NCBI GenBank assembly: GCA_013152415.1
Contig: JAADGI010000014.1
Coordinates: 36,489 to 68,488, forward strand
Origin: Gammaproteobacteria bacterium
GTDB lineage: Bacteria > Pseudomonadota > Gammaproteobacteria > HyVt-429
DNA: 32,000 bases
Direction of reading: 5' to 3'
Position numbers and translations under genes: made by a program. The notes below the pieces were generated by a model, which did not search any database, was not told the origin of the DNA, and was given only the letters and a program-made list of their open reading frames with translations. Positions 1,780 to 18,527 of the stretch are shown piece after piece. Each line of letters begins with the position of its first letter. Positions within the stretch are counted from its first letter, which is position 1.

Positions 1780-2976
1780 TTATTTTGCAATGCTAATCGG
1801 CAAACCTGGAACGTGCGTTACATCCATAACCGTCATTTGATATAAGTGATAAAGTAACTTGAAGACTTCTTGATTCCAGGAAATATCAGGTTCATGGCGA
1901 CTTTTATCGTCCGCCAACCAATAATACGCCGAGTGATACTCCACAAAAAAATCTACATTCTTTGGTTTTTCTGATGACTCCAGAATCTCCAAGGTCTTAA
2001 CCGGATTGGCTGGTATTGTTCCACTACGCGGGTCTTTCTCAACCCGGAATTCAGGATAACTGTGCATGCTGTTTGCAATAAACTCGATTACTGCATTAAA
2101 ACTCCTGAGCTTAATCCATGCTTGGATCGGGAATTCTCCACCGGGGTAACCTGGCCGAATATCCACAAGTATAAAATTATTCGGATACTGCCGGGCTTTC
2201 TTGTCTAACCGGCGACGCTCAAAATTTGAGAGCGTGTTTGGATCAAAGTTGGCAATCAATATACGCCCACGCACAGGTTTGCTAAAAATTTTTTCATTTT
2301 CCTCTGTAGTCCAGAAATAACCTCGCTCTGCGATTTTGAGAAGCTCATCCATTGAGGGATCACGTCCACTAATACTCCATTGCCGATCGTAATTTATTGG
2401 CCCAATATCAAGAACACCCGCATATTCCAACGCGGCTAAATGAAAAACTGCACGACGGAATTGTTGAAACTCTTTGATATGACGAGCATCATTATGAAAA
2501 ATAGTTCGCACACCATTTTTTTCAATTAATATTGCGCGTACCATCAAACGAAGCACCATGCCAATATCAACACCCTGATGTGCCATAAACTCAAACTTGC
2601 TTTCATCCATCGGTGTTAACAGGCGTTTGGTAAAGGCCTCCCCTTGGATCGGGACAATATTGATCGTTGGGTTTTCAGCCACGCTGGTGCCAAGGGCTAG
2701 TGCCATACCACCACCGCCATTTCTAAGCGGCTCCCGTGCCAAGCCAGCATTCATACGAAAATCAAAAGTCGCTGCCACATTGGGTACAGCAGTAAAATGA
2801 ATAGGCATGTGATTACGTGCACGGGCAATATTCAGCAATAAAAGCTGGGTCTGAATTTGTGCGTGCGCTCTATCATATCCAATCACAGCGTGATCCATCG
2901 CTATTGGTGATACGCATCCAACCAACCCACTAATTACTCCGGCCATCACCACAAAACGGTAATACCGGCGCAACAA
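1780..2976 (-). CDS. hypothetical lipoprotein (function unknown)
   Basis: The long ORF is 1780-3141, but its first ~55 codons overlap the end of the upstream amidohydrolase gene. A TTG at 2974-2976 gives (M)LRRYYRFVVMAGVISGLVGC, a textbook lipoprotein signal with an LVGC lipobox. ATG alternatives lie at 3018 and 2946. I recognise no family for the mature part. Confidence 0.6.
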   Translation of the reverse strand: MLRRYYRFVVMAGVISGLVGCVSPIAMDHAVIGYDRAHAQIQTQLLLLNIARARNHMPIHFTAVPNVAATFDFRMNAGLAREPLRNGGGGMALALGTSVAENPTINIVPIQGEAFTKRLLTPMDESKFEFMAHQGVDIGMVLRLMVRAILIEKNGVRTIFHNDARHIKEFQQFRRAVFHLAALEYAGVLDIGPINYDRQWSISGRDPSMDELLKIAERGYFWTTEENEKIFSKPVRGRILIANFDPNTLSNFERRRLDKKARQYPNNFILVDIRPGYPGGEFPIQAWIKLRSFNAVIEFIANSMHSYPEFRVEKDPRSGTIPANPVKTLEILESSEKPKNVDFFVEYHSAYYWLADDKSRHEPDISWNQEVFKLLYHLYQMTVMDVTHVPGLPISIAK

Positions 2977-2989
2977 ACAAATGGTACCC

Positions 2990-4849
2990 TTAAAATACAA
3001 AACACGAACAGCCACCATCCCAACCAAAGGGATCTCGTGTAGCATATCCTCTGCTTTTTTGTGTTGAGGCATGTGAACGTGAACAACAACCCATAGGAGG
3101 TGTGACATGCGAGGCTGTTGAAAACTGCGAATATCCACCATAGATTGCTACGGGAGACCAGTCTGGGCTAACCGGCAGAGGCGCAGGAGCCAATTTGCTA
3201 AAGCCCCCTGCAGCGTACACGATTTTACCGCCAACAATCGTTAACACAGATTCCACCGCCTTAATCTGCTCATCAGGGATAGAAAAATAGTCATCAGACA
3301 ACACCGCAAGATCCGCAAGTTGCCCATCCATAATCTTTCCTTTCTTGTCTTCTTCGCCTGAAAACCAGCTGCTTCCAACTGTCCACAAACGTAGTGCCTC
3401 CATTCGGTCAAGGCAATTATTTTCGGAATAAAGGCACAGACCACCCACTGTTTTTCCCGACACCAACCAATAAAGTGAAACGAATGGATTGTAACTGGCA
3501 ACACGTGTTGCATCGGTGCCGGAGCCGACGGGCACTTCCATTTCCAACATCTTGCTTATGGGTGGCGTTTGCCGTGCTTTGTCTGCACCATAACGAGCAA
3601 CGAAATATTCACCTTGATAGGCCATGCGATGTTGAATAGCAATACCTCCACCAAGTGCTTTGATACGTTCAATATTTTGTTCTGAAATTGTTTCTGCGTG
3701 GTCAATAATCCAGTGCATACCATCAAACGGCACTTCTTTATTCACCTCTTCGTACACATTGAGCACACGTGTGATCGATTCATCATAGGTGGAATGAATA
3801 CGAAATGGCCAACGATTCTGTGCCAACAAGGTAACAACCTCTTTAAGGTCGGATTCCATTGTCTCGGGAAGATTCGGGCGAGGCTCCAGAAAATCTTCAA
3901 AATCTACCGCAGAGAATGCCAACATTTCACCTGCCCCATTCATACGGTAAAAATCATCACCTTGACCGGGGTTAGTCATTTTTATCCATCTACTAAAATC
4001 ATCCATCTCTTGACCGGGTTGTTGCGTAAACAGGTTATAGGCAATTCTCACCGTCAACTGATTATCCCGATGCAATTGGTCAATAACCTCATAGTCATCG
4101 GGAAAATTTTGAAATCCACCACCTGCATCTATCACACTGGTAATACCGAGGCGATTGAGTTCGCGCATAAACTGTCGTGTTGAATTCAGTTGCTGTTCAA
4201 CAGGAAGTTTAGGTGCCATGCCCAAAGTAGAGTACAAAATAAATGCATTGGGCTGTGCAATCAGTAGGCCTGTAGGATGACCGCCCTTGTCCCGCTGAAT
4301 TTCACCACCGGGTGGATTCGGTGTATCTTTTGAATATCCCAATACACGCAGGGCGGCCTGATTGAGAATAGCCCGCGCATATAAATGTAATACCATCACC
4401 GGGGTATCCGGCGCAGCGCTATTAATTTCGGCCAACGTCGGCATACGTCGCTCAGCAAACTGGAACTCTGACCACCCACCGATAACACGAACCCATTGAC
4501 CATTGGGTGTGCGCTGTACTTGCTCCCGCAACATACGCAAGCCGTCTGCAAGCGATGGTACACCATCCCAACGCAACTCCAGATTGTAATTTAGACCACC
4601 ACGAATCAGATGAGTATGTGAGTCATTAAGTCCCGGAATAACTGTGCGCTGTACCAGATCAATAGCCTGGGTATCATTATTTCGATACCGCATAATTTCC
4701 TTTTCGGACCCAATGGCCATGAATTGGTCATCTTTGATTGCGACAGCAGAGACAAAGGCATTCTTTTTATCCATCGTTGCAATGCGACCATTAAACAAAA
4801 TTATGTCCGCATATTCTTCAACACCATTATTTAGATCAGAAACCATCAT
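2990..4849 (-). CDS. metal-dependent amidohydrolase, Amidohydro_3 / YtcJ-like family
   Basis: 619-aa ORF. The N-terminus has ADIILFNGRIATMD...VIPGLNDSHTHL (metal-binding HxH). Later motifs are IHSTYDE, IIDHAE and GSGTDA, typical of the TIM-barrel amidohydrolase_3 group. AAGGTGA lies just upstream of the tandem ATGs at 4849/4846. Confidence 0.85.
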   Translation of the reverse strand: MMVSDLNNGVEEYADIILFNGRIATMDKKNAFVSAVAIKDDQFMAIGSEKEIMRYRNNDTQAIDLVQRTVIPGLNDSHTHLIRGGLNYNLELRWDGVPSLADGLRMLREQVQRTPNGQWVRVIGGWSEFQFAERRMPTLAEINSAAPDTPVMVLHLYARAILNQAALRVLGYSKDTPNPPGGEIQRDKGGHPTGLLIAQPNAFILYSTLGMAPKLPVEQQLNSTRQFMRELNRLGITSVIDAGGGFQNFPDDYEVIDQLHRDNQLTVRIAYNLFTQQPGQEMDDFSRWIKMTNPGQGDDFYRMNGAGEMLAFSAVDFEDFLEPRPNLPETMESDLKEVVTLLAQNRWPFRIHSTYDESITRVLNVYEEVNKEVPFDGMHWIIDHAETISEQNIERIKALGGGIAIQHRMAYQGEYFVARYGADKARQTPPISKMLEMEVPVGSGTDATRVASYNPFVSLYWLVSGKTVGGLCLYSENNCLDRMEALRLWTVGSSWFSGEEDKKGKIMDGQLADLAVLSDDYFSIPDEQIKAVESVLTIVGGKIVYAAGGFSKLAPAPLPVSPDWSPVAIYGGYSQFSTASHVTPPMGCCSRSHASTQKSRGYATRDPFGWDGGCSCFVF

Positions 4850-7957: not shown

Positions 7958-8167
7958 TTAAGTAAGTGCCATTCCAACCTGACCCTATATATTTTCTAAA
8001 AAAAAGACAGTAATTTGTAAGCGCAATATCGCAACCTTACCGTTGACCGTAACGTAAAAATCATAATTTTTCTTTTCCTTCCCGTCCTTGCAAGTGTATC
8101 ATCTTCCCTATCTATTCAATGGTAAAGAGATCAGTTTTTGTCTGTATGCCAATTGGAGGTCCAACCA

Positions 8168-8596
8168 ATGTCCGATATCGATATGGAACTGAGCACAGGT
8201 CTTGCCGCCTTTGAGGCCAAGGAATTTTCCCGTGCCAAACAACTATTGTCACCGCTTGCCGATCAAGGTAACGCCGAGGCCCAGCACCGGCTCGCCATTA
8301 TCTATCAAAATGGACTCAGTCTGGTAAAAAATGAAATGTGCGCCTACAAGTGGATGCGTGCCGCTGCCGAACAGGACCACGCCAACGCCCAGCATGGACT
8401 CGGTTTTATGTATCTGCACGGAGAGTGTATCAACAAGAATGAGACCGAAGCCGCACAGTGGTTTCACAAGGCTGCTGAACAGGGATTGATCGGTTCACAG
8501 ACAATCCTGGCGGAGATGTACGCGACAGGCCAGGGTGTTGAAAAAGACCTAGATGAGGCACAAAAATGGAAAAAGCGGGTAGAGGAACAGACTTAG
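8168..8596 (+). CDS. Sel1-repeat (TPR-like) protein
   Basis: There are three to four Sel1 units (GNAEAQHRLAIIYQNG, DHANAQHGLGFMYLHG, GLIGSQTILAEMYATGQGVEKDLDEAQKW). The ATG at 8168 has GGAGG (8155-8159) 8 nt upstream. The track start at 8138 is a TTG. Confidence 0.8.
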   Translation: MSDIDMELSTGLAAFEAKEFSRAKQLLSPLADQGNAEAQHRLAIIYQNGLSLVKNEMCAYKWMRAAAEQDHANAQHGLGFMYLHGECINKNETEAAQWFHKAAEQGLIGSQTILAEMYATGQGVEKDLDEAQKWKKRVEEQT

Positions 8597-8703: not shown

Positions 8704-11178
8704 CTAGAGCCTTTCTTCGGAAACCAGATGTTCATCCAGGTCCAGGATGACGTTTGTAAAACCATTTTTCTGAGCACCTTGAAGAAACTCGGCACGCCGC
8801 AGGAGCGCCTCTTCTGTACCACCAACGCCAGCCAGACCATTCCCTTGCTCTCGCCCAGGGCGATGGGCTGCCACCAGCGTGTGTGAGCGTTGGTAAATAT
8901 ACTCAGATGCCTTTTGATAGCCGAGTTTACGAACCTTTACATCGTAATAATCTGCTGATGATTCCGTCAGATCAATCACCCATTCCGTTGAGCCCCCATC
9001 AATGATGTCTTGCCGCGCATTGCTGATTAAACCGGGTAATGGCTTATTGTCTTTACCACTTCCTCTCCACACCGTGTTATCGATCCGAGGCTCACCGTTC
9101 CATGCTGCACCTGCCTCGAACACCTTCTTGTAGTCCTCTATCATCCGGGCCTCGGGAACCGCTTCTATAATAAGGAGCCGGTGTGGAACGTTATGCTTCT
9201 GCAAATACTCGACAGCCGTCTTCGTCATCACATAGTCTGATCCGGGGGCAAGCGGCGTAACCAGGGTTAAGTGAACATCGGGATTTCGATCGGCCAATTT
9301 ACGTAGGATATCGGCGATTTGTTCTCGCAGCCAATCTCCTTCCTCCGCATCAATATGGTTCTTTCCAATCAGACCAATCCAGCAATCTTTACGGATTAAG
9401 TCTTGATTTCCACCGTCCTCTACCCTGGTCAGTAGACTTCGGTCCAAAAGGCGAATCTGATTACGGTCAAAATCCCTGGTTTGCTCATCCAAAGATTCAT
9501 AAGGGACAATATTGGGATGAAGTTTACGGGTATCATCCCGGCGCTCACCATATTGCCATCCATCCACATACCTTCCCGCCACCCATGACCGATGCTCAAG
9601 TTCGGCCAGCATCTCTAGCGTATCCGTATCTTCACAAAACCGGAATCCATTCGAGACATCTAAAGCGTATCCGCCTGATACGTAATACCCAGCGGCCGAA
9701 AGCTTGGTTTTAATATGATCTGCGGCCCGACGATTGGAGACACGATAAGTTTCGCTTAGCTCCCGCCATTTAGATAGCGGCAACCCACTCCGCCCTTCGC
9801 CCTCATGACCCAACCGGGTCTGGCGATCTCCCACATAGGCGAGATGGATCTTCAGGGCAATGTCCTCCAAAGACCCCTCTAGTTTTTTCAGCGAGCATAA
9901 CCGATCCTCGACACCAAAAGGCTGGATTATATCGCTGAACCGTCGTGCATGGGACGAAGCAACAAGCAGGTCCCCGATTCCTTCGCATTTGGACAAGCGG
10001 ACATAGGTCGGAGACTTCCAACACCCAGTCTGCTGCATCGTGTTCTGGACGCATATGGCAGCACTCAGCGCTGTAGCACCCTGATCCAGACAAATAAACA
10101 CGGCGGTAACTTCATCGGCTCTCTCGATCTTAGCCATGAGTTCTTTCGACAAACGGTCAGTCTCAAATCGGAAATTTTCGAACCTAATCTCTGCAATCTC
10201 TTTACCTTTGATTTGCGGATAAGCCTGTTCGATCCGCGACTTCGCCATAGCTTCATCATCAGTTAAGATGGTAAAAACGGGGCACTCAAAATCAGGATAT
10301 ACACTAGCGGGTGGCAAGTATCCAATCATCGCCTCGGTATAATCATCGAATCCAATAAAAACTACATGAATACGCTTCTGGTTGCGAAGTTTGGCATAGT
10401 TCCACAGTGGTTCAGCCCAGATGAACTGGCGTACCGCCCAAACGCTGAGGTTGAACGGCAACATATCAAAACTACCACAACTTCGTTTAATGGATTCCGA
10501 ACGCACAAGTTGACGCCACAGTTGCCGATTACTGACGGCGACACTTGCGAGTAACCGTGACCCCACCCTTAGTCGCTCTTCGACAATCTTGCGAGCCATC
10601 ATAGTCACCTCAAGATTCTCGCTATCATCGGGCAGTGCCACGATCAGGCGCCTGGCCTTATGGATTGCTGCTTCTTCCAGAATGGCCCGATCAAGCGGAT
10701 TGCCCACCAAGATTTCAAAACCAAGAAGCCGCGCAACAGTCTCATTCGCCTCATCGTACTTGTTGCCTATCAGTACAACTTTGTGCCCACAATCTACTTC
10801 TGACTTGGCGAATGCAAGGCCATTCTTCGAAAGCCCACAGACAACCGTATGGTCCTTCATCATGCGGATACGCCTGGCCTTGATGGTGCTCGCGAAGAAC
10901 TCGATACCGACCCTGAGAATCGCACCCGCTGTCGCCAGAGGGGCTGTAACACGCGCAATCAAAAGAGAATAATAATCATCAGGAATGGGGATATCCGGTT
11001 TTTCTGCAGAAAAGAACGAGATTGTCCGGGCTACAATTTTTAAGAAAAGGCTGGGGTCAAATTTATTGCCACGGGCCAGCTCATAGACAGCCCAACCGTA
11101 TAAGCCAAGACCCGCGCTTACTGCCGCCCAAAGGAACAATCCGACCCATAAAAACTTATCGGTTCGTTTTATTGACAC
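8704..11178 (-). CDS. membrane protein: N-terminal 2 TM, TrkA_N-like Rossmann region(s), RyR domain, C-terminal SLOG-like (YpsA/DprA/LOG-type) Rossmann domain. Candidate effector/sensor partner of the adjacent TIR protein
   Basis: 824 aa with a GTG start preceded by GGTGA. TM helices at aa 9-31 and 71-95. TrkA_N-like: HTVVCGLSKNGLAFAK...KVVLIG...GNPLDRAILEEAAIHKARRLIVALPDD (aa ~110-225). RyR: LEMLAELEHRSWVAGRYVDGWQYGERRDDTRKLHPNIVPYESLDEQTRDFDRN (aa ~520-575), preceded by IALKIHLAY...WRELSETYRVSNRRAADHIKTKL. SLOG-like (aa ~597-815): WIGLIGKNH, VTPLAPGSD and SHTLVAAH...GVGGTEEAL. No K+ selectivity filter (TVGYG) is present. Confidence 0.75.
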   Translation of the reverse strand: MSIKRTDKFLWVGLFLWAAVSAGLGLYGWAVYELARGNKFDPSLFLKIVARTISFFSAEKPDIPIPDDYYSLLIARVTAPLATAGAILRVGIEFFASTIKARRIRMMKDHTVVCGLSKNGLAFAKSEVDCGHKVVLIGNKYDEANETVARLLGFEILVGNPLDRAILEEAAIHKARRLIVALPDDSENLEVTMMARKIVEERLRVGSRLLASVAVSNRQLWRQLVRSESIKRSCGSFDMLPFNLSVWAVRQFIWAEPLWNYAKLRNQKRIHVVFIGFDDYTEAMIGYLPPASVYPDFECPVFTILTDDEAMAKSRIEQAYPQIKGKEIAEIRFENFRFETDRLSKELMAKIERADEVTAVFICLDQGATALSAAICVQNTMQQTGCWKSPTYVRLSKCEGIGDLLVASSHARRFSDIIQPFGVEDRLCSLKKLEGSLEDIALKIHLAYVGDRQTRLGHEGEGRSGLPLSKWRELSETYRVSNRRAADHIKTKLSAAGYYVSGGYALDVSNGFRFCEDTDTLEMLAELEHRSWVAGRYVDGWQYGERRDDTRKLHPNIVPYESLDEQTRDFDRNQIRLLDRSLLTRVEDGGNQDLIRKDCWIGLIGKNHIDAEEGDWLREQIADILRKLADRNPDVHLTLVTPLAPGSDYVMTKTAVEYLQKHNVPHRLLIIEAVPEARMIEDYKKVFEAGAAWNGEPRIDNTVWRGSGKDNKPLPGLISNARQDIIDGGSTEWVIDLTESSADYYDVKVRKLGYQKASEYIYQRSHTLVAAHRPGREQGNGLAGVGGTEEALLRRAEFLQGAQKNGFTNVILDLDEHLVSEERL

Positions 11179-11374
11179 AGGTTTATATCACCAAAGTTTA
11201 ATGACTTAGCAAATCTTCCATTAACCACCGATACGATCTCCATTTCAACGCTTGGATGATTTTATTTACCTTTCCTTCCCGGTTTTGTCACGATAAATAA
11301 CCGCTATTCAGATTCCCGCCTTCACCACCTTAGCCAAGCCACCGTAGAAGGATTTGATTTTCAAATGCCTCTGT

Positions 11375-12247
11375 TCAGTGTTTATTTAATATTTTATCGA
11401 GGATAGACTGAAAAACTGTTTGTGCAAAAATCTTATCACTATCACTAATTTCGTTATTTTTATGCTTCGAATGACCCGAGATATTGCGCTCAGCGATTCG
11501 CAGTGAGCGCAACAACTCTTCTGAAATCAATCCATCTGCGATCAAATCGTACTCCCTCTGGAAGGACTTAATCGCAAACCTGGTATTCGTGTCGCTTGCA
11601 CCTGTAATCCTGCCATTATAGTAACCCAATCGCTGTAGAGCCCTCTGCACTTCGTAGGCATGCACGGCCTTTTCCCTGAAATTTCCATCACCACCGGAAA
11701 ATAGAAGTTGCCATGCGACCAACAAACCAAGTATACCGATTGTGGACATGACCACCCCTACAGCAATTCCATGTCTATGGAAAAATTTTACCTTCTTTTT
11801 CTTTAGCAGATTTCGAGACTGCCGGGAATGCACTTCTTGCTGCCCATTTACAACAGGTATGAGTCTGTTAATGTGCGGACCAAGCGGTCCATCGAAAGCA
11901 TCAATCCAGTGATGTGCGCCAATAAAAAACTCAAGCGAGCTGGATGGAAGAATATCCTTTATGCGGAAAGGGAAAATTGGAACGAGTTTTGAGGCTGCGC
12001 GCTCTACCTCGCGTCTTACCATAGGTGATGCATTGGCATCCTCCGTGAGAACCAGCACCATGCACTTCGAGCTATTGATGCCGCGGATAATTTCCTCGCC
12101 GTACTCCCTGCCAGGGCGAACATCTCGCGGCGCGATCCAACACCGACAACCCTTCTTTTCCAAATGCAGGGCTATTTCATATGCCCGATCCTGATCTTGA
12201 GAGGCATAACTGATAAAAGCGAAGTACTCCGTTTCCTGCTCAACCAT
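11375..12247 (-). CDS. TIR-domain protein with one TM helix and a C-terminal peptidoglycan-binding (PG_binding_1) domain
   Basis: 290 aa, with AAGGAGG 8 nt upstream of the ATG. TIR: YFAFISYASQDQDRAYEIALHLEKKGCRCWIAPRD...CMVLVLTEDANASPMVRREVERA (candidate catalytic Glu at E80). KKKKVKFFHRH is followed by the TM helix GIAVGVVMSTIGILGLLVAWQLLF (aa 160-183). PG-binding: VQRALQRLGYYNGRITGASDTNTRFAIKSFQREYDLIADGLISEELLRSL. Confidence 0.85.
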   Translation of the reverse strand: MVEQETEYFAFISYASQDQDRAYEIALHLEKKGCRCWIAPRDVRPGREYGEEIIRGINSSKCMVLVLTEDANASPMVRREVERAASKLVPIFPFRIKDILPSSSLEFFIGAHHWIDAFDGPLGPHINRLIPVVNGQQEVHSRQSRNLLKKKKVKFFHRHGIAVGVVMSTIGILGLLVAWQLLFSGGDGNFREKAVHAYEVQRALQRLGYYNGRITGASDTNTRFAIKSFQREYDLIADGLISEELLRSLRIAERNISGHSKHKNNEISDSDKIFAQTVFQSILDKILNKH

Positions 12248-12630
12248 CGAGACATCCTCCTTAAGCCGTATCCATGTTTTTCCTGGTAGCTACAAATTTC
12301 GGCTCTAGCAGTCAAAACAGCAAAAGACAAACCAAGCTAAGCTTCACGGGCGAAGAAACTAACTTTGTGGGCACGTGACTAATCCAGCACGGTTCCTCAG
12401 GATTGTGCGGGCTTTGCCCAAATCCGGGGCACTACCCATTCTTCTTGCAATTATACTACTGAAAGTAGACTGCATTGGCAAACCACCCCTCTCGATATTC
12501 TTAGGCATGCCCCAAGCCTTTGATCACATCTCGGAGATAGACCAGACCCCCTAATAAAGCAGCCACATCGCAGCAATTCACTGGTTTTGGGGGGATTATC
12601 AGTACACTGAATATTTCTAATATACGAAAA

Positions 12631-12660
12631 AAAAGCAGACAAAATATTGCCTGCTTTTTC
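12631..12660 (-). terminator. rho-independent terminator candidate downstream of clpA (bidirectional shape)
   Basis: aaaaGCAGac-aaaatatt-gcCTGCttttt. The stem AAAAGCAG/CTGCTTTT is flanked by an A-run and a T-run, so the minus-strand transcript ends in a hairpin followed by about 8 U. It lies ~155 nt past the clpA stop. Confidence 0.55.
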
Positions 12661-12813
12661 CCAACCAATTTATCCAAACTGGTCACAAATAGGCCTGCTT
12701 CATCCCTACAACTCCCACTTGGGTAATTTAGTAATTTATAATATTCTACCCCATCCCAGAAATAGGTTTCATCCAGCGCGTTTAATGAGAAGAGCAACTT
12801 GAATCTTTATAGA

Positions 12814-17540: not shown

Positions 17541-17921
17541 TCAAATTATAAAGTAACGTTTTGATTTAAAAGTGTTGTTTCTGGGATTCATTTTGGCGAC
17601 CCACACCAGATGCGCATTCTAACATGACCCTCGCACATAGATAATGCCACACGACATATTAGGGGTTAATTAGAGCCTGGCCTTGCCACCCCCCTATGGA
17701 TACTGGCCCACCTTGCACCTCACTTTCGTTGGGGAACTCATATAACATGGCCCGGTCCAAGCACTGAACAGTGACATTGCACAAACCCTCCGGTTATCGG
17801 AAAATGGGCCCTGTGAACAGTGCCACCGCAGTCTGCCCACCGCCGTCTGCTAGGAATGATGACCCAACTGACAACTCTTTTCATCAAATTGCTTCCCAAA
17901 AGACCTGTCCGACAAAACAAC

Positions 17922-18527
17922 ATGAAACCAAGCCAACTTATCTGCGCAGGACTCCTGATCAGCCTATTAACGAATGGGGGCCTGGTGGTCGCGGGCACCT
18001 CACCAACGCCCACCCTTGATGCCATCCCGGTATGCTATGACTTCGACTGCAACACCCGTCAGGTGGTGAGCCTGTCCCGTGAAGAATGGCAAGGGGTACT
18101 GGGCTGGCTACAACCGGCCGCGACCAACGCAGCAGAAGAACGTAAAAGGATTCGCCAGGCGATTGGGTGGATCGAAGAACTGATTGGGCGGCATACTCCC
18201 ACCCACCTGGATAGCGCCAAAAATGATCTCCTGCCCTCCCAGGCCGAAGGCCAGCAAGACTGCATCGATGAATCGCTCAATACCACGACCTACTTGCGTC
18301 TATTGGAACGTGAAGGACTACTTAAATGGCACCGGGTAGTAGACCGCGCCTATCGCAAGGCGATTCTGGATCAACACTGGGCAGGCCAGATCGAAGAAAT
18401 CGCTACAGGGCAGGGCTATGTGGTCGACTCCTGGTTTTCCGCCAACGGCCATCTACCCTTTATCCAGAAGGTCGAAAAATGGAAAAAAATACGCTATTTC
18501 CGCACCTCGTTTGACTACACCTTCTAG
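17922..18527 (+). CDS. hypothetical secreted/periplasmic protein
   Basis: From the ATG at 17922, MKPSQLICAGLLISLLTNGGLVVAG reads as a signal peptide. The mature part has four Cys (CYDFDC...C) and belongs to no family I recognise. The RBS is weak, and the longer track ORF from 17820 adds a non-signal-like extension. Confidence 0.55.
   Translation: MKPSQLICAGLLISLLTNGGLVVAGTSPTPTLDAIPVCYDFDCNTRQVVSLSREEWQGVLGWLQPAATNAAEERKRIRQAIGWIEELIGRHTPTHLDSAKNDLLPSQAEGQQDCIDESLNTTTYLRLLEREGLLKWHRVVDRAYRKAILDQHWAGQIEEIATGQGYVVDSWFSANGHLPFIQKVEKWKKIRYFRTSFDYTF

Follow-up and report, generated by a model that had tools for sequence, protein, structure and literature searches.

A putative Thoeris-like pair: a receptor-like TIR protein encoded beside a K+-channel-derived RCK-RyR protein with a SLOG-like C-terminal domain

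A TIR gene and a channel-like gene lie side by side

We analysed a window of 32,000 nucleotides (positions 36,489 to 68,488 of contig JAADGI010000014.1, assembly GCA_013152415.1) from a gammaproteobacterial metagenome-assembled genome (MAG). A gene on the minus strand of this window (8704..11178) encodes a protein of 824 amino acids (aa), hereafter the target, which joins in one chain two transmembrane (TM) helices flanking a pore loop, two RCK domains, a single RyR repeat and a SLOG-like C-terminal domain (CTD). The adjoining upstream gene, on the same strand, encodes a receptor-like protein with a TIR domain, one TM helix and a PG_binding_1 domain, and the pair looks like a new, putative Thoeris-like immune or suicide module.

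The open reading frame (ORF) of the target is identical to the NCBI MAG protein GXP09_04330, annotated as a hypothetical protein, and its family comprises 15 clusters at 90% identity among 5.8 billion proteins. A full-length AlphaFold2 (AF2) model built from 11 homologs reached a pLDDT of 83.8 and a pTM of 0.80. An earlier, sequence-only reading of the window, centred on 8734..9873 of the minus strand (aa 436-815 of the ORF), had proposed an RyR domain at aa ~520-575 followed by a SLOG-like domain, and upstream of them two TM helices without a K+ filter and a TrkA_N-like Rossmann domain with a degenerate glycine motif, all next to a TIR enzyme. Each of these elements was recovered in our analyses, the SLOG-like domain as a remote member of its superfamily, and the scores of the target's elements are all far above chance. 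In scans with hidden Markov models, the RyR and TrkA_N domains exceeded their cutoffs, whereas none of the SLOG clades reached threshold.

A K+-channel-derived membrane module followed by tandem RCK domains

The first 105 residues of the target (10864..11178, minus strand) form the pore module. Secondary structure assignment with DSSP on the AF2 model places TM1 at aa 5-35, a pore-helix-like segment at aa 42-56, a loop at aa 57-69 and TM2, or inner helix, at aa 70-105. Phmmer aligned aa 25-205 of the target with residues 31-207 of full-length MthK (E value 2e-5), pairing the pore helix of MthK (SLYWTFVTIA) with SLFLKIVART and its filter (TVGYGD) with ISFFSA. A GYG filter was found in none of the family members in the pore-loop alignment, the consensus of which is YRTxxLFxx(E/D). 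Likewise, Foldseek matched the target model to full-length GsuK chains over ~500 columns (E value 2e-9), and next to TrkA, MthK and Slo1. Because the MthK alignment runs through the pore and GYG is absent family-wide, the module is, judging from its sequence, one that stems from the K+ channel family and has lost the K+ filter. Its TM1/pore helix/TM2 topology is homologous to that of the 2TM P-loop K+ channel superfamily, and on this ground the target belongs there, although it lacks the TVGYG selectivity filter. Positive charges near the start of the protein and just behind TM2 (KARRIRMMKDH) place the soluble domains of the target all in the cytoplasm.

The pore module is followed by RCK1, a TrkA_N Rossmann domain (aa 106-255; 10414..10863, minus strand), which Pfam recognised at aa 112-201 (PF02254, 50.5 bits, cutoff 23.8), which gave partial Kch/TrkA matches in NCBIfam, and which also matches MthK, GsuK and TrkA by sequence and fold. 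An intact GxGxxG motif and an acidic end of the second beta strand are absent from the target, which reads CGLSKNG and VVLIG-N at these places; roughly half of its family members have retained CGLGxxG together with an acidic residue (D/E) ending this strand. A second RCK-like Rossmann domain, RCK2 (aa 266-435; 9874..10383, minus strand), was related to RCK1 by hhalign (score 32, P 1.7e-4, 95 columns), and in Foldseek its region matched the tandem-RCK proteins GsuK, TrkA and Slo1. Since the second Rossmann domain is related to the first, the target shows a tandem-RCK layout like that of GsuK and Slo1.

A single RyR repeat

The RyR repeat spans aa 478-585 (9424..9747, minus strand), with a Pfam core at aa 519-576 (9451..9624) that scored 54.7 bits against a gathering cutoff of 27.4 (PF02026). 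Phmmer comparisons of this segment with the PDB gave E values of 3e-25 to RyR repeat structures (6uhi) and of 5.6e-12 to the Bacteroides RyR protein 3NRT, and Foldseek retrieved 6uhi and 6uhh. The repeat is the only part of RyR channels present in the target, as Pfam detected no RIH, SPRY, MIR or 6TM RyR/IP3R pore. We know of no function for bacterial RyR domains. A literature search, which did not cover the founding SLOG paper (Burroughs et al. 2015), returned no link of the RyR domain to SLOG or TIR.

The CTD is probably a remote SLOG domain

The CTD (aa 590-824, 235 aa; 8707..9411, minus strand) is a Rossmannoid domain for which Pfam, NCBIfam and PADLOC gave no match in the target, and which on its own was modelled by AF2 with a pLDDT of 89.1. 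The consensus of its family (IGLxGHxxL / TPLAPGxD / PGGTxE) contains the loops of a SLOG pocket, namely a Gly-rich loop after the first beta strand, a G-x-D loop and a GGT-type loop. The corresponding motifs of the target are WIGLIGKNH (G602, G605), PLAPGSD (P645, G646, D648) and GVGGTEE (~aa 783-789), and the five numbered residues are pocket residues that the target retains.

Three independent kinds of comparison bear on the origin of this domain. When 77 CTD members were scanned with Pfam, only families of the SLOG clan recurred, all of them with sub-threshold matches (E values 0.008-1): YAcAr in 8/77, YpsA in 5/77 and DprA in 1/77, with other families appearing in at most two members each. 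In profile comparisons with hhalign, the CTD aligned to YpsA with a score of 26.2 (P 0.0033) over 145 colinear columns, at an HH probability of 9.7%, whereas the controls scored at most 15.2 (other profile pairs), 15.0 (reversed profile) and at most 18.9 (30 column shuffles). The YpsA reference sequence was checked against PDB 2NX2 and the homologs in its profile all carry PF06908. Comparisons of the CTD profile with the single sequences of YpsA or E. coli Smf, which are underpowered, gave ~1% probability, and against PDB sequences the profile retrieved chance-level matches alone, such as MAD2 and YfbR. Finally, Foldseek searches of BFVD with the CTD model returned an unnamed protein (E value 2.9e-7), a 'DprA-like' protein (E value 9.2e-7, TM-score 0.79) and five viral proteins annotated as 'YspA cpYpsA-related SLOG' (probabilities 0.94-1.0), that is, significant Rossmannoid matches to known SLOG members. 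Together, the Pfam scans, hhalign and Foldseek make it highly probable that the CTD is a divergent domain of the SLOG superfamily, and it is one that lies outside every curated SLOG family.

A search with the CTD profile recovered 241 representative proteins among 1.84 billion. The CTD directly follows an RyR repeat in ~100 of 158 retrieved proteins, mainly in TM-RCK-RCK-RyR proteins of ~800 aa and sometimes in short RyR-CTD proteins. It also occurs as a standalone protein of ~200 aa and at the N-terminus of proteins of ~800 aa with TPR-S and an adenylate/guanylate cyclase domain (15 representatives, P0090, P0100, P0104 and P0128 among them). This distribution of a mobile module over three contexts is typical of a sensor domain. 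The only gene context of a CTD-TPR-S-cyclase protein that we examined, at L018, was uninformative. In GCA_000260135.1 (L017:6001-7818), only 16 bp separate a standalone CTD gene of 217 aa from the orthologous patatin gene downstream of it, and the two form a minimal 'SLOG + patatin' pair; the link to patatin, which recurs around target relatives (see below), therefore follows the CTD itself.

The neighbouring gene encodes a receptor-like TIR protein

The upstream gene (11375..12247, minus strand) encodes 290 aa, in which Pfam identified TIR_2 (E value 4.5e-22) and PG_binding_1 (E value 3.7e-12). The TIR domain (aa 11-120; 11888..12217, minus strand) carries a candidate catalytic Glu, E80, in the motif VRREVERA, and this residue was conserved in 6/6 of the orthologous or neighbouring TIR proteins aligned. 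As in Thoeris, a TIR with a catalytic Glu is encoded beside the putative effector. A hydropathy scan and the alignment place the single TM helix at ~aa 159-181 (11705..11773, minus strand); it is preceded, on the cytoplasmic side, by the basic stretch NLLKKKKVKFFHRH and followed by the PG_binding_1 domain (aa 199-249; 11501..11653, minus strand), which is predicted to be periplasmic. Orthologs of this protein swap PG_binding_1 for CHASE2 or for unknown domains, sharing the cytoplasmic TIR and the one TM helix while the extracytoplasmic domain varies.

Within nucleotides 11001-12000, the guanine-cytosine content over the TIR gene falls to 0.435, compared with values of 0.48-0.53 for clpA and the target gene, which suggests that the TIR gene might have been acquired separately or recently. 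No terminator-like site was found between the TIR gene and the target, in a scan that was not above shuffle expectation, and the promoter-like sites of the minus strand, weak and equally not above shuffle expectation, occur solely upstream of the TIR gene.

TIR, patatin and other conflict-type genes recur beside target relatives

We compared 15 loci, comprising the window, eight contigs found by exact-protein look-up and six distinct species-genome loci, with L010 being the same contig as L004. A TIR gene adjoins the target or its relative in 7/15 of them: the window, L002 (TIR-CHASE2), L007, where the TIR is the N-terminus of a protein of 1231 aa, L008, L009, L012 and L014 (TIR-PG_binding_1). 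Orthologs of the window-type TIR protein are those of L009, L012 and L014, with E values from 1e-42 to 1e-49. An orthologous patatin with a GTSTG motif is likewise adjacent, or one gene away, in seven of the 15 (L001, L003, L006, L007, L009, L011 and L012). In two cases the three genes are clustered on one strand, with ORFs that overlap or abut, in the order TIR-target-patatin in L009 and patatin-target-TIR in L012, and overall the orthologous TIR and patatin genes recur beside target relatives in unrelated genomes with their order shuffled. An association specific to TIR was considered and rejected, as patatin is equally frequent.

The related loci hold other conflict-type genes. Giant nSTAND1-TPR NTPases are encoded in L001, L003 and L006, and SLATT/DUF4231 genes in L006 (4875-6791) and L014 (14183-15595). 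DUF4231 belongs to the SLATT superfamily (PMC9812332), the class to which the effectors of type VII Thoeris belong. A conserved caspase-WD40 / SH3 / serpin cluster lies beside target relatives in L005 (10685-18661), which adds a trypsin-caspase protein, and in L011 (6702-12513). Genes for a TIR-reverse transcriptase and a TIR-nSTAND1-FGE-sulfatase protein (L006:1-1616) lie less than 8 kb from the target relative of L006, which makes this region a dense conflict-system island. The nSTAND1 giants of L001 (1905-7928) and L003 (11739-15578) show weak N-terminal matches to DUF4062 (E value ~0.002), a domain that we take to be TIR-like, and a neighbour in L008 (6195-8021) shows a strong one (E value 1e-14) together with TPR.

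Small RyR-only proteins of 124-170 aa are encoded divergently beside target relatives in L004 (7469-7843; the L010 contig) and L015 (8580-9089), both loci without TIR or patatin, and may hetero-dimerise with the RyR repeat. The relative in L015 (9161-11092), from Alkalicaulis satelles, consists of RCK2 and RyR, with the CTD absent.

In the window itself, the gene of a Sel1-repeat protein of 152 aa (8138-8596, plus strand) converges on the target gene at its 3' end; in PADLOC this protein matched PtuA weakly (E value 8e-5), probably through its repeat content. ORFs without a Pfam match are found at 12501-12797 (minus strand, 98 aa), between the TIR gene and clpA and with a terminator-like hairpin inside it (12562-12574, minus strand), at 1783-3147 (minus strand, 455 aa) and at 17817-18524 (plus strand, 236 aa).

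A proposed mechanism and its alternatives

Our best reading is that of a two-gene Thoeris-like module, in which an NAD-derived nucleotide made by the TIR protein would activate a channel-like effector through the SLOG-like CTD; we put its probability at about 45%. A nucleotide-activated membrane effector is the best hypothesis because TIR adjacency is conserved and because, in type I Thoeris, SLOG receives the isomers of cyclic ADP-ribose (cADPR) made by TIR. The data above establish which domains are present and how they are arranged, that the gene neighbourhood is conserved and that catalytic and motif residues are retained, and a course of events can be proposed from them. The TIR-TM-PG_binding protein would act as an envelope-facing receptor, a periplasmic or cell-wall cue activating its cytoplasmic TIR domain. 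As expected from TIR enzymology, the TIR would then convert NAD+ into a nucleotide derived from ADP-ribose (ADPR) and, by analogy with ThsA, this would be bound by the SLOG-like CTD of the 824-aa protein, where the adjoining RyR repeat, to which the domain is fused in nearly all cases, may aid binding or dimer contacts. In keeping with the architecture, a 'gating ring' of the tandem RCK domains would pass the change on to the filter-less, K+-channel-derived 2TM pore, and the outcome could be a non-selective ion leak or membrane depolarisation that would stop growth or end in abortive infection. In related loci, the patatin phospholipase and/or the SLATT protein would be further effectors of the same signal.

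More specifically, the target could be a ligand-gated cation channel of bacteria whose K+-channel-derived pore would be opened by the nucleotide of a cell-wall-sensing TIR via a unit of RyR repeat and SLOG domain, a proposal that we consider rather unlikely. If true, a single prokaryotic channel controlled by TIR would join modules of the animal cADPR/ADPR-linked RyR and TRPM2 channels, and a first function would be available for a bacterial RyR domain. The sequence-only reading had leaned in this direction, suggesting a prokaryotic counterpart of RyR and TRPM2 responsive to an NAD-derived signal. The shared modules are indeed there, but a RyR-type pore is absent and the pore comes from the K+ channel family; likewise, the domain calls and the link to TIR (7/15 loci) hold, but a TIR-specific neighbourhood does not, because patatin, SLATT, nSTAND1 and caspase recur equally.

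Several observations weigh against the Thoeris-like module. From locus to locus it is the channel-like protein that stays constant, whereas the TIR does so in canonical Thoeris, and four of the 15 loci (L004/L010, L005, L013 and L015) have neither TIR nor patatin. The TIR protein of the window has its own TM helix and periplasmic domain, unlike the known cytosolic ThsB sensors, and with Phe residues in the place of GYG the putative pore may fail to conduct at all. None of the 77 CTD members scanned reaches a Pfam gathering threshold for SLOG, and Foldseek found no match to the CTD in the PDB at E values ≤1e-3, the matches to TRPM4 (probability 0.66) and DprA being weak, so that the structural case for this domain is that of the BFVD search. 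The family is sparse and its sources are all MAG or environmental, chiefly Alpha- and Gammaproteobacteria. Lastly, PADLOC models gave no match to the target, and the pair is flanked in the window by housekeeping genes (those for ClpA, Icd, MnmA, PurB, pirin and an amidohydrolase) with no defence island, so that neither defence-system models nor genomic location mark it as a defence system.

The main rival reverses the polarity of the module. The channel-like RCK-RyR-SLOG protein would be a sensor or regulator, of ions, of NAD+/ADP/ATP or of the membrane state, placed over interchangeable killers, with the TIR acting by NAD+ depletion and the patatin by lipid degradation, and with the SLATT and caspase proteins also among them. 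This would explain why the channel-like protein is constant while the genes beside it differ (TIR, patatin, SLATT or caspase), and it agrees with the role of RCK domains as ligand sensors (according to PDB titles, of NAD+/ADP in GsuK and of Ca2+ in MthK) and with the many bacterial TIR proteins that act as NADase toxins. However, the TIR proteins possess variable periplasmic sensor domains of their own (PG_binding_1, CHASE2), which fit an input rather than an output, the standalone CTD pairs with patatin and no channel part, and SLOG receives TIR products in the characterised systems. We regard this reversed arrangement as improbable, if still the strongest of the alternatives.

The giant NTPases suggest a second alternative, a multi-gene conflict system organised by a STAND NTPase (nSTAND1-TPR) of the Kaur/Aravind type, where the target would be one among several membrane or lytic effectors, recruited through contacts between proteins, with no diffusible TIR signal, and the TIR would be an adaptor or a direct NADase. 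Apart from the giants adjoining target relatives in L001, L003 and L006, the caspase-WD40, trypsin-caspase and serpin genes near the relatives in L005 and L011, the TIR-reverse transcriptase and TIR-nSTAND1-FGE genes in L006 and the DUF4062-TPR gene in L008 speak for such a system. The window, L009, L012 and L014, on the other hand, are compact arrangements of TIR and target, with or without patatin, and have no STAND NTPase within the sequence examined; Pfam detected no effector-associated adaptor domain in the target, and the SLOG domain argues for the sensing of a small molecule, which together leave this alternative a little less likely than the previous one.

The SLOG superfamily also includes enzymes, the LOG nucleotide N-glycosidases. 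The CTD could accordingly be a LOG/DprA-type nucleotide-processing enzyme, for instance an off-switch of the TIR signal, that the membrane part localises or regulates, and the family motif PGGTxE does resemble the PGGxGTxxE of LOG. We find this doubtful in a higher degree, as the motif spacing is unlike that of LOG, the best relatives (YpsA/YAcAr and DprA-like) are binders and not hydrolases, and some members of the close family deviate from GGT. An ordinary housekeeping cation channel or regulator of K+ transport with an incidental TIR neighbour would agree with the clear homology to MthK, GsuK and TrkA, with the housekeeping genes around the window pair and with the label 'voltage-gated potassium channel Kch' that JGI gives to one homolog, but it is very improbable given that the K+ filter is missing family-wide, that orthologous TIR and patatin genes recur in shuffled order in unrelated genomes, that the phyletic distribution is very sparse and that TIR, patatin or SLATT lies beside the target or its relative in most of the loci compared.

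Significance of the pair

The pair formed by the TIR-TM-PG_binding protein and the RCK-RyR-SLOG channel-like protein is compact and well defined. TIR-SLOG nucleotide signalling is already known, and what the target would contribute to the Thoeris-like repertoire is a new effector architecture. The window TIR protein adds a new receptor layout which, with its sensor domain outside the cytoplasm joined by one TM helix to a TIR inside it, resembles that of Toll-like receptors. TIR-made cADPR isomers, canonical cADPR included, have recently been shown to be bacterial immune signals and, should nucleotide gating of the target prove true, it would be relevant to the question of how (c)ADPR-regulated channels arose in evolution.

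Comparison with known systems

A preprint of December 2025 on TIR signalling defines 29 putative types of Thoeris, among which types V, VII and X are validated combinations of TIR with membrane or ion-channel effectors (10.64898/2025.12.03.692087). The available text and tables of this preprint make no mention of RyR, TrkA/RCK, PG_binding or CHASE2, and the window-type TIR motif is not among the entries listed in its TIR table; Kaur 2021 likewise mentions neither the RyR domain nor SLOG.

In type I Thoeris (ThsB TIR and ThsA SIR2-SLOG), SLOG binds 3'cADPR and is thereby a known receptor of TIR-made cADPR isomers (10.64898/2025.12.03.692087). The window pair is alike in that a TIR gene, with the catalytic Glu kept, adjoins an effector gene with a SLOG-type putative receiver. 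Unlike in type I, the output part of the target is not SIR2 but a K+-channel-derived module with tandem RCK and an RyR repeat, its CTD does not belong to the ThsA SLOG family, being nearest to YpsA/YAcAr and DprA-like proteins, and the window-type TIR is anchored in the membrane with a periplasmic PG-binding or CHASE2 domain. The same preprint lists, in its Table S2, TIR-associated candidates described as 'SLOG Patatin' and 'SLOG and 4TM', untested or not defensive in E. coli (10.64898/2025.12.03.692087). Compared by description only, they share with our loci the themes of TIR, SLOG and patatin or TM segments, and the SLOG-like CTD is linked in the genome with an orthologous patatin; they differ in that SLOG and patatin are here separate genes and in that the target is a 2TM channel with RCK and RyR.

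Type X Thoeris couples a TIR to an 'ion channel', ThsK, through an unknown signal (10.64898/2025.12.03.692087). We located its operon by a homolog search followed by contig look-up; a route through plasmids had led to type II systems (TIR and Macro) or to a degraded CRISPR region and was abandoned. The concept of a TIR with a predicted ion-channel effector is common to both, a likeness that is conceptual and not homologous: ThsK (L023:3298-3987) is a multi-TM protein of 229 aa without any Pfam domain, and BLASTP found no similarity between it and the target (E value 1.3). The TIR of type X is ThsB_TIR (PF08937), whereas that of the window is TIR_2 with a TM helix and PG_binding_1.

Animal RyR and TRPM channels are both linked to (c)ADPR signalling. 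With the animal RyRs, the target shares the RyR repeat module, at ~40% identity over the core. Burroughs and co-workers are said to have assigned the N-terminal domains of TRPM channels to the SLOG superfamily in 2015, and the fold of the target CTD is related to this superfamily, TRPM4 being the weak Foldseek match mentioned above; the likeness extends in this sense to TRPM2/TRPM4. Unlike these channels, the target has one RyR repeat and lacks RIH, SPRY, the 6TM RyR pore and the TRP pore. The resemblance is one of modules, with no evidence of orthology or of a shared ligand.

The K+ channels GsuK, MthK and Slo1 differ from the target in their filter (TVGYG instead of ISFFSA), in lacking the extra RyR repeat and SLOG domain, and in context, as the target family is found among conflict-type genes and not genes of ion homeostasis. 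They are alike in the succession of TM1, pore helix and TM2 before RCK and, for GsuK and Slo1, in carrying RCK1 and RCK2 in tandem in one chain, and the similarity to the target includes the pore module in both sequence (E value 2e-5) and fold (E value 2e-9).

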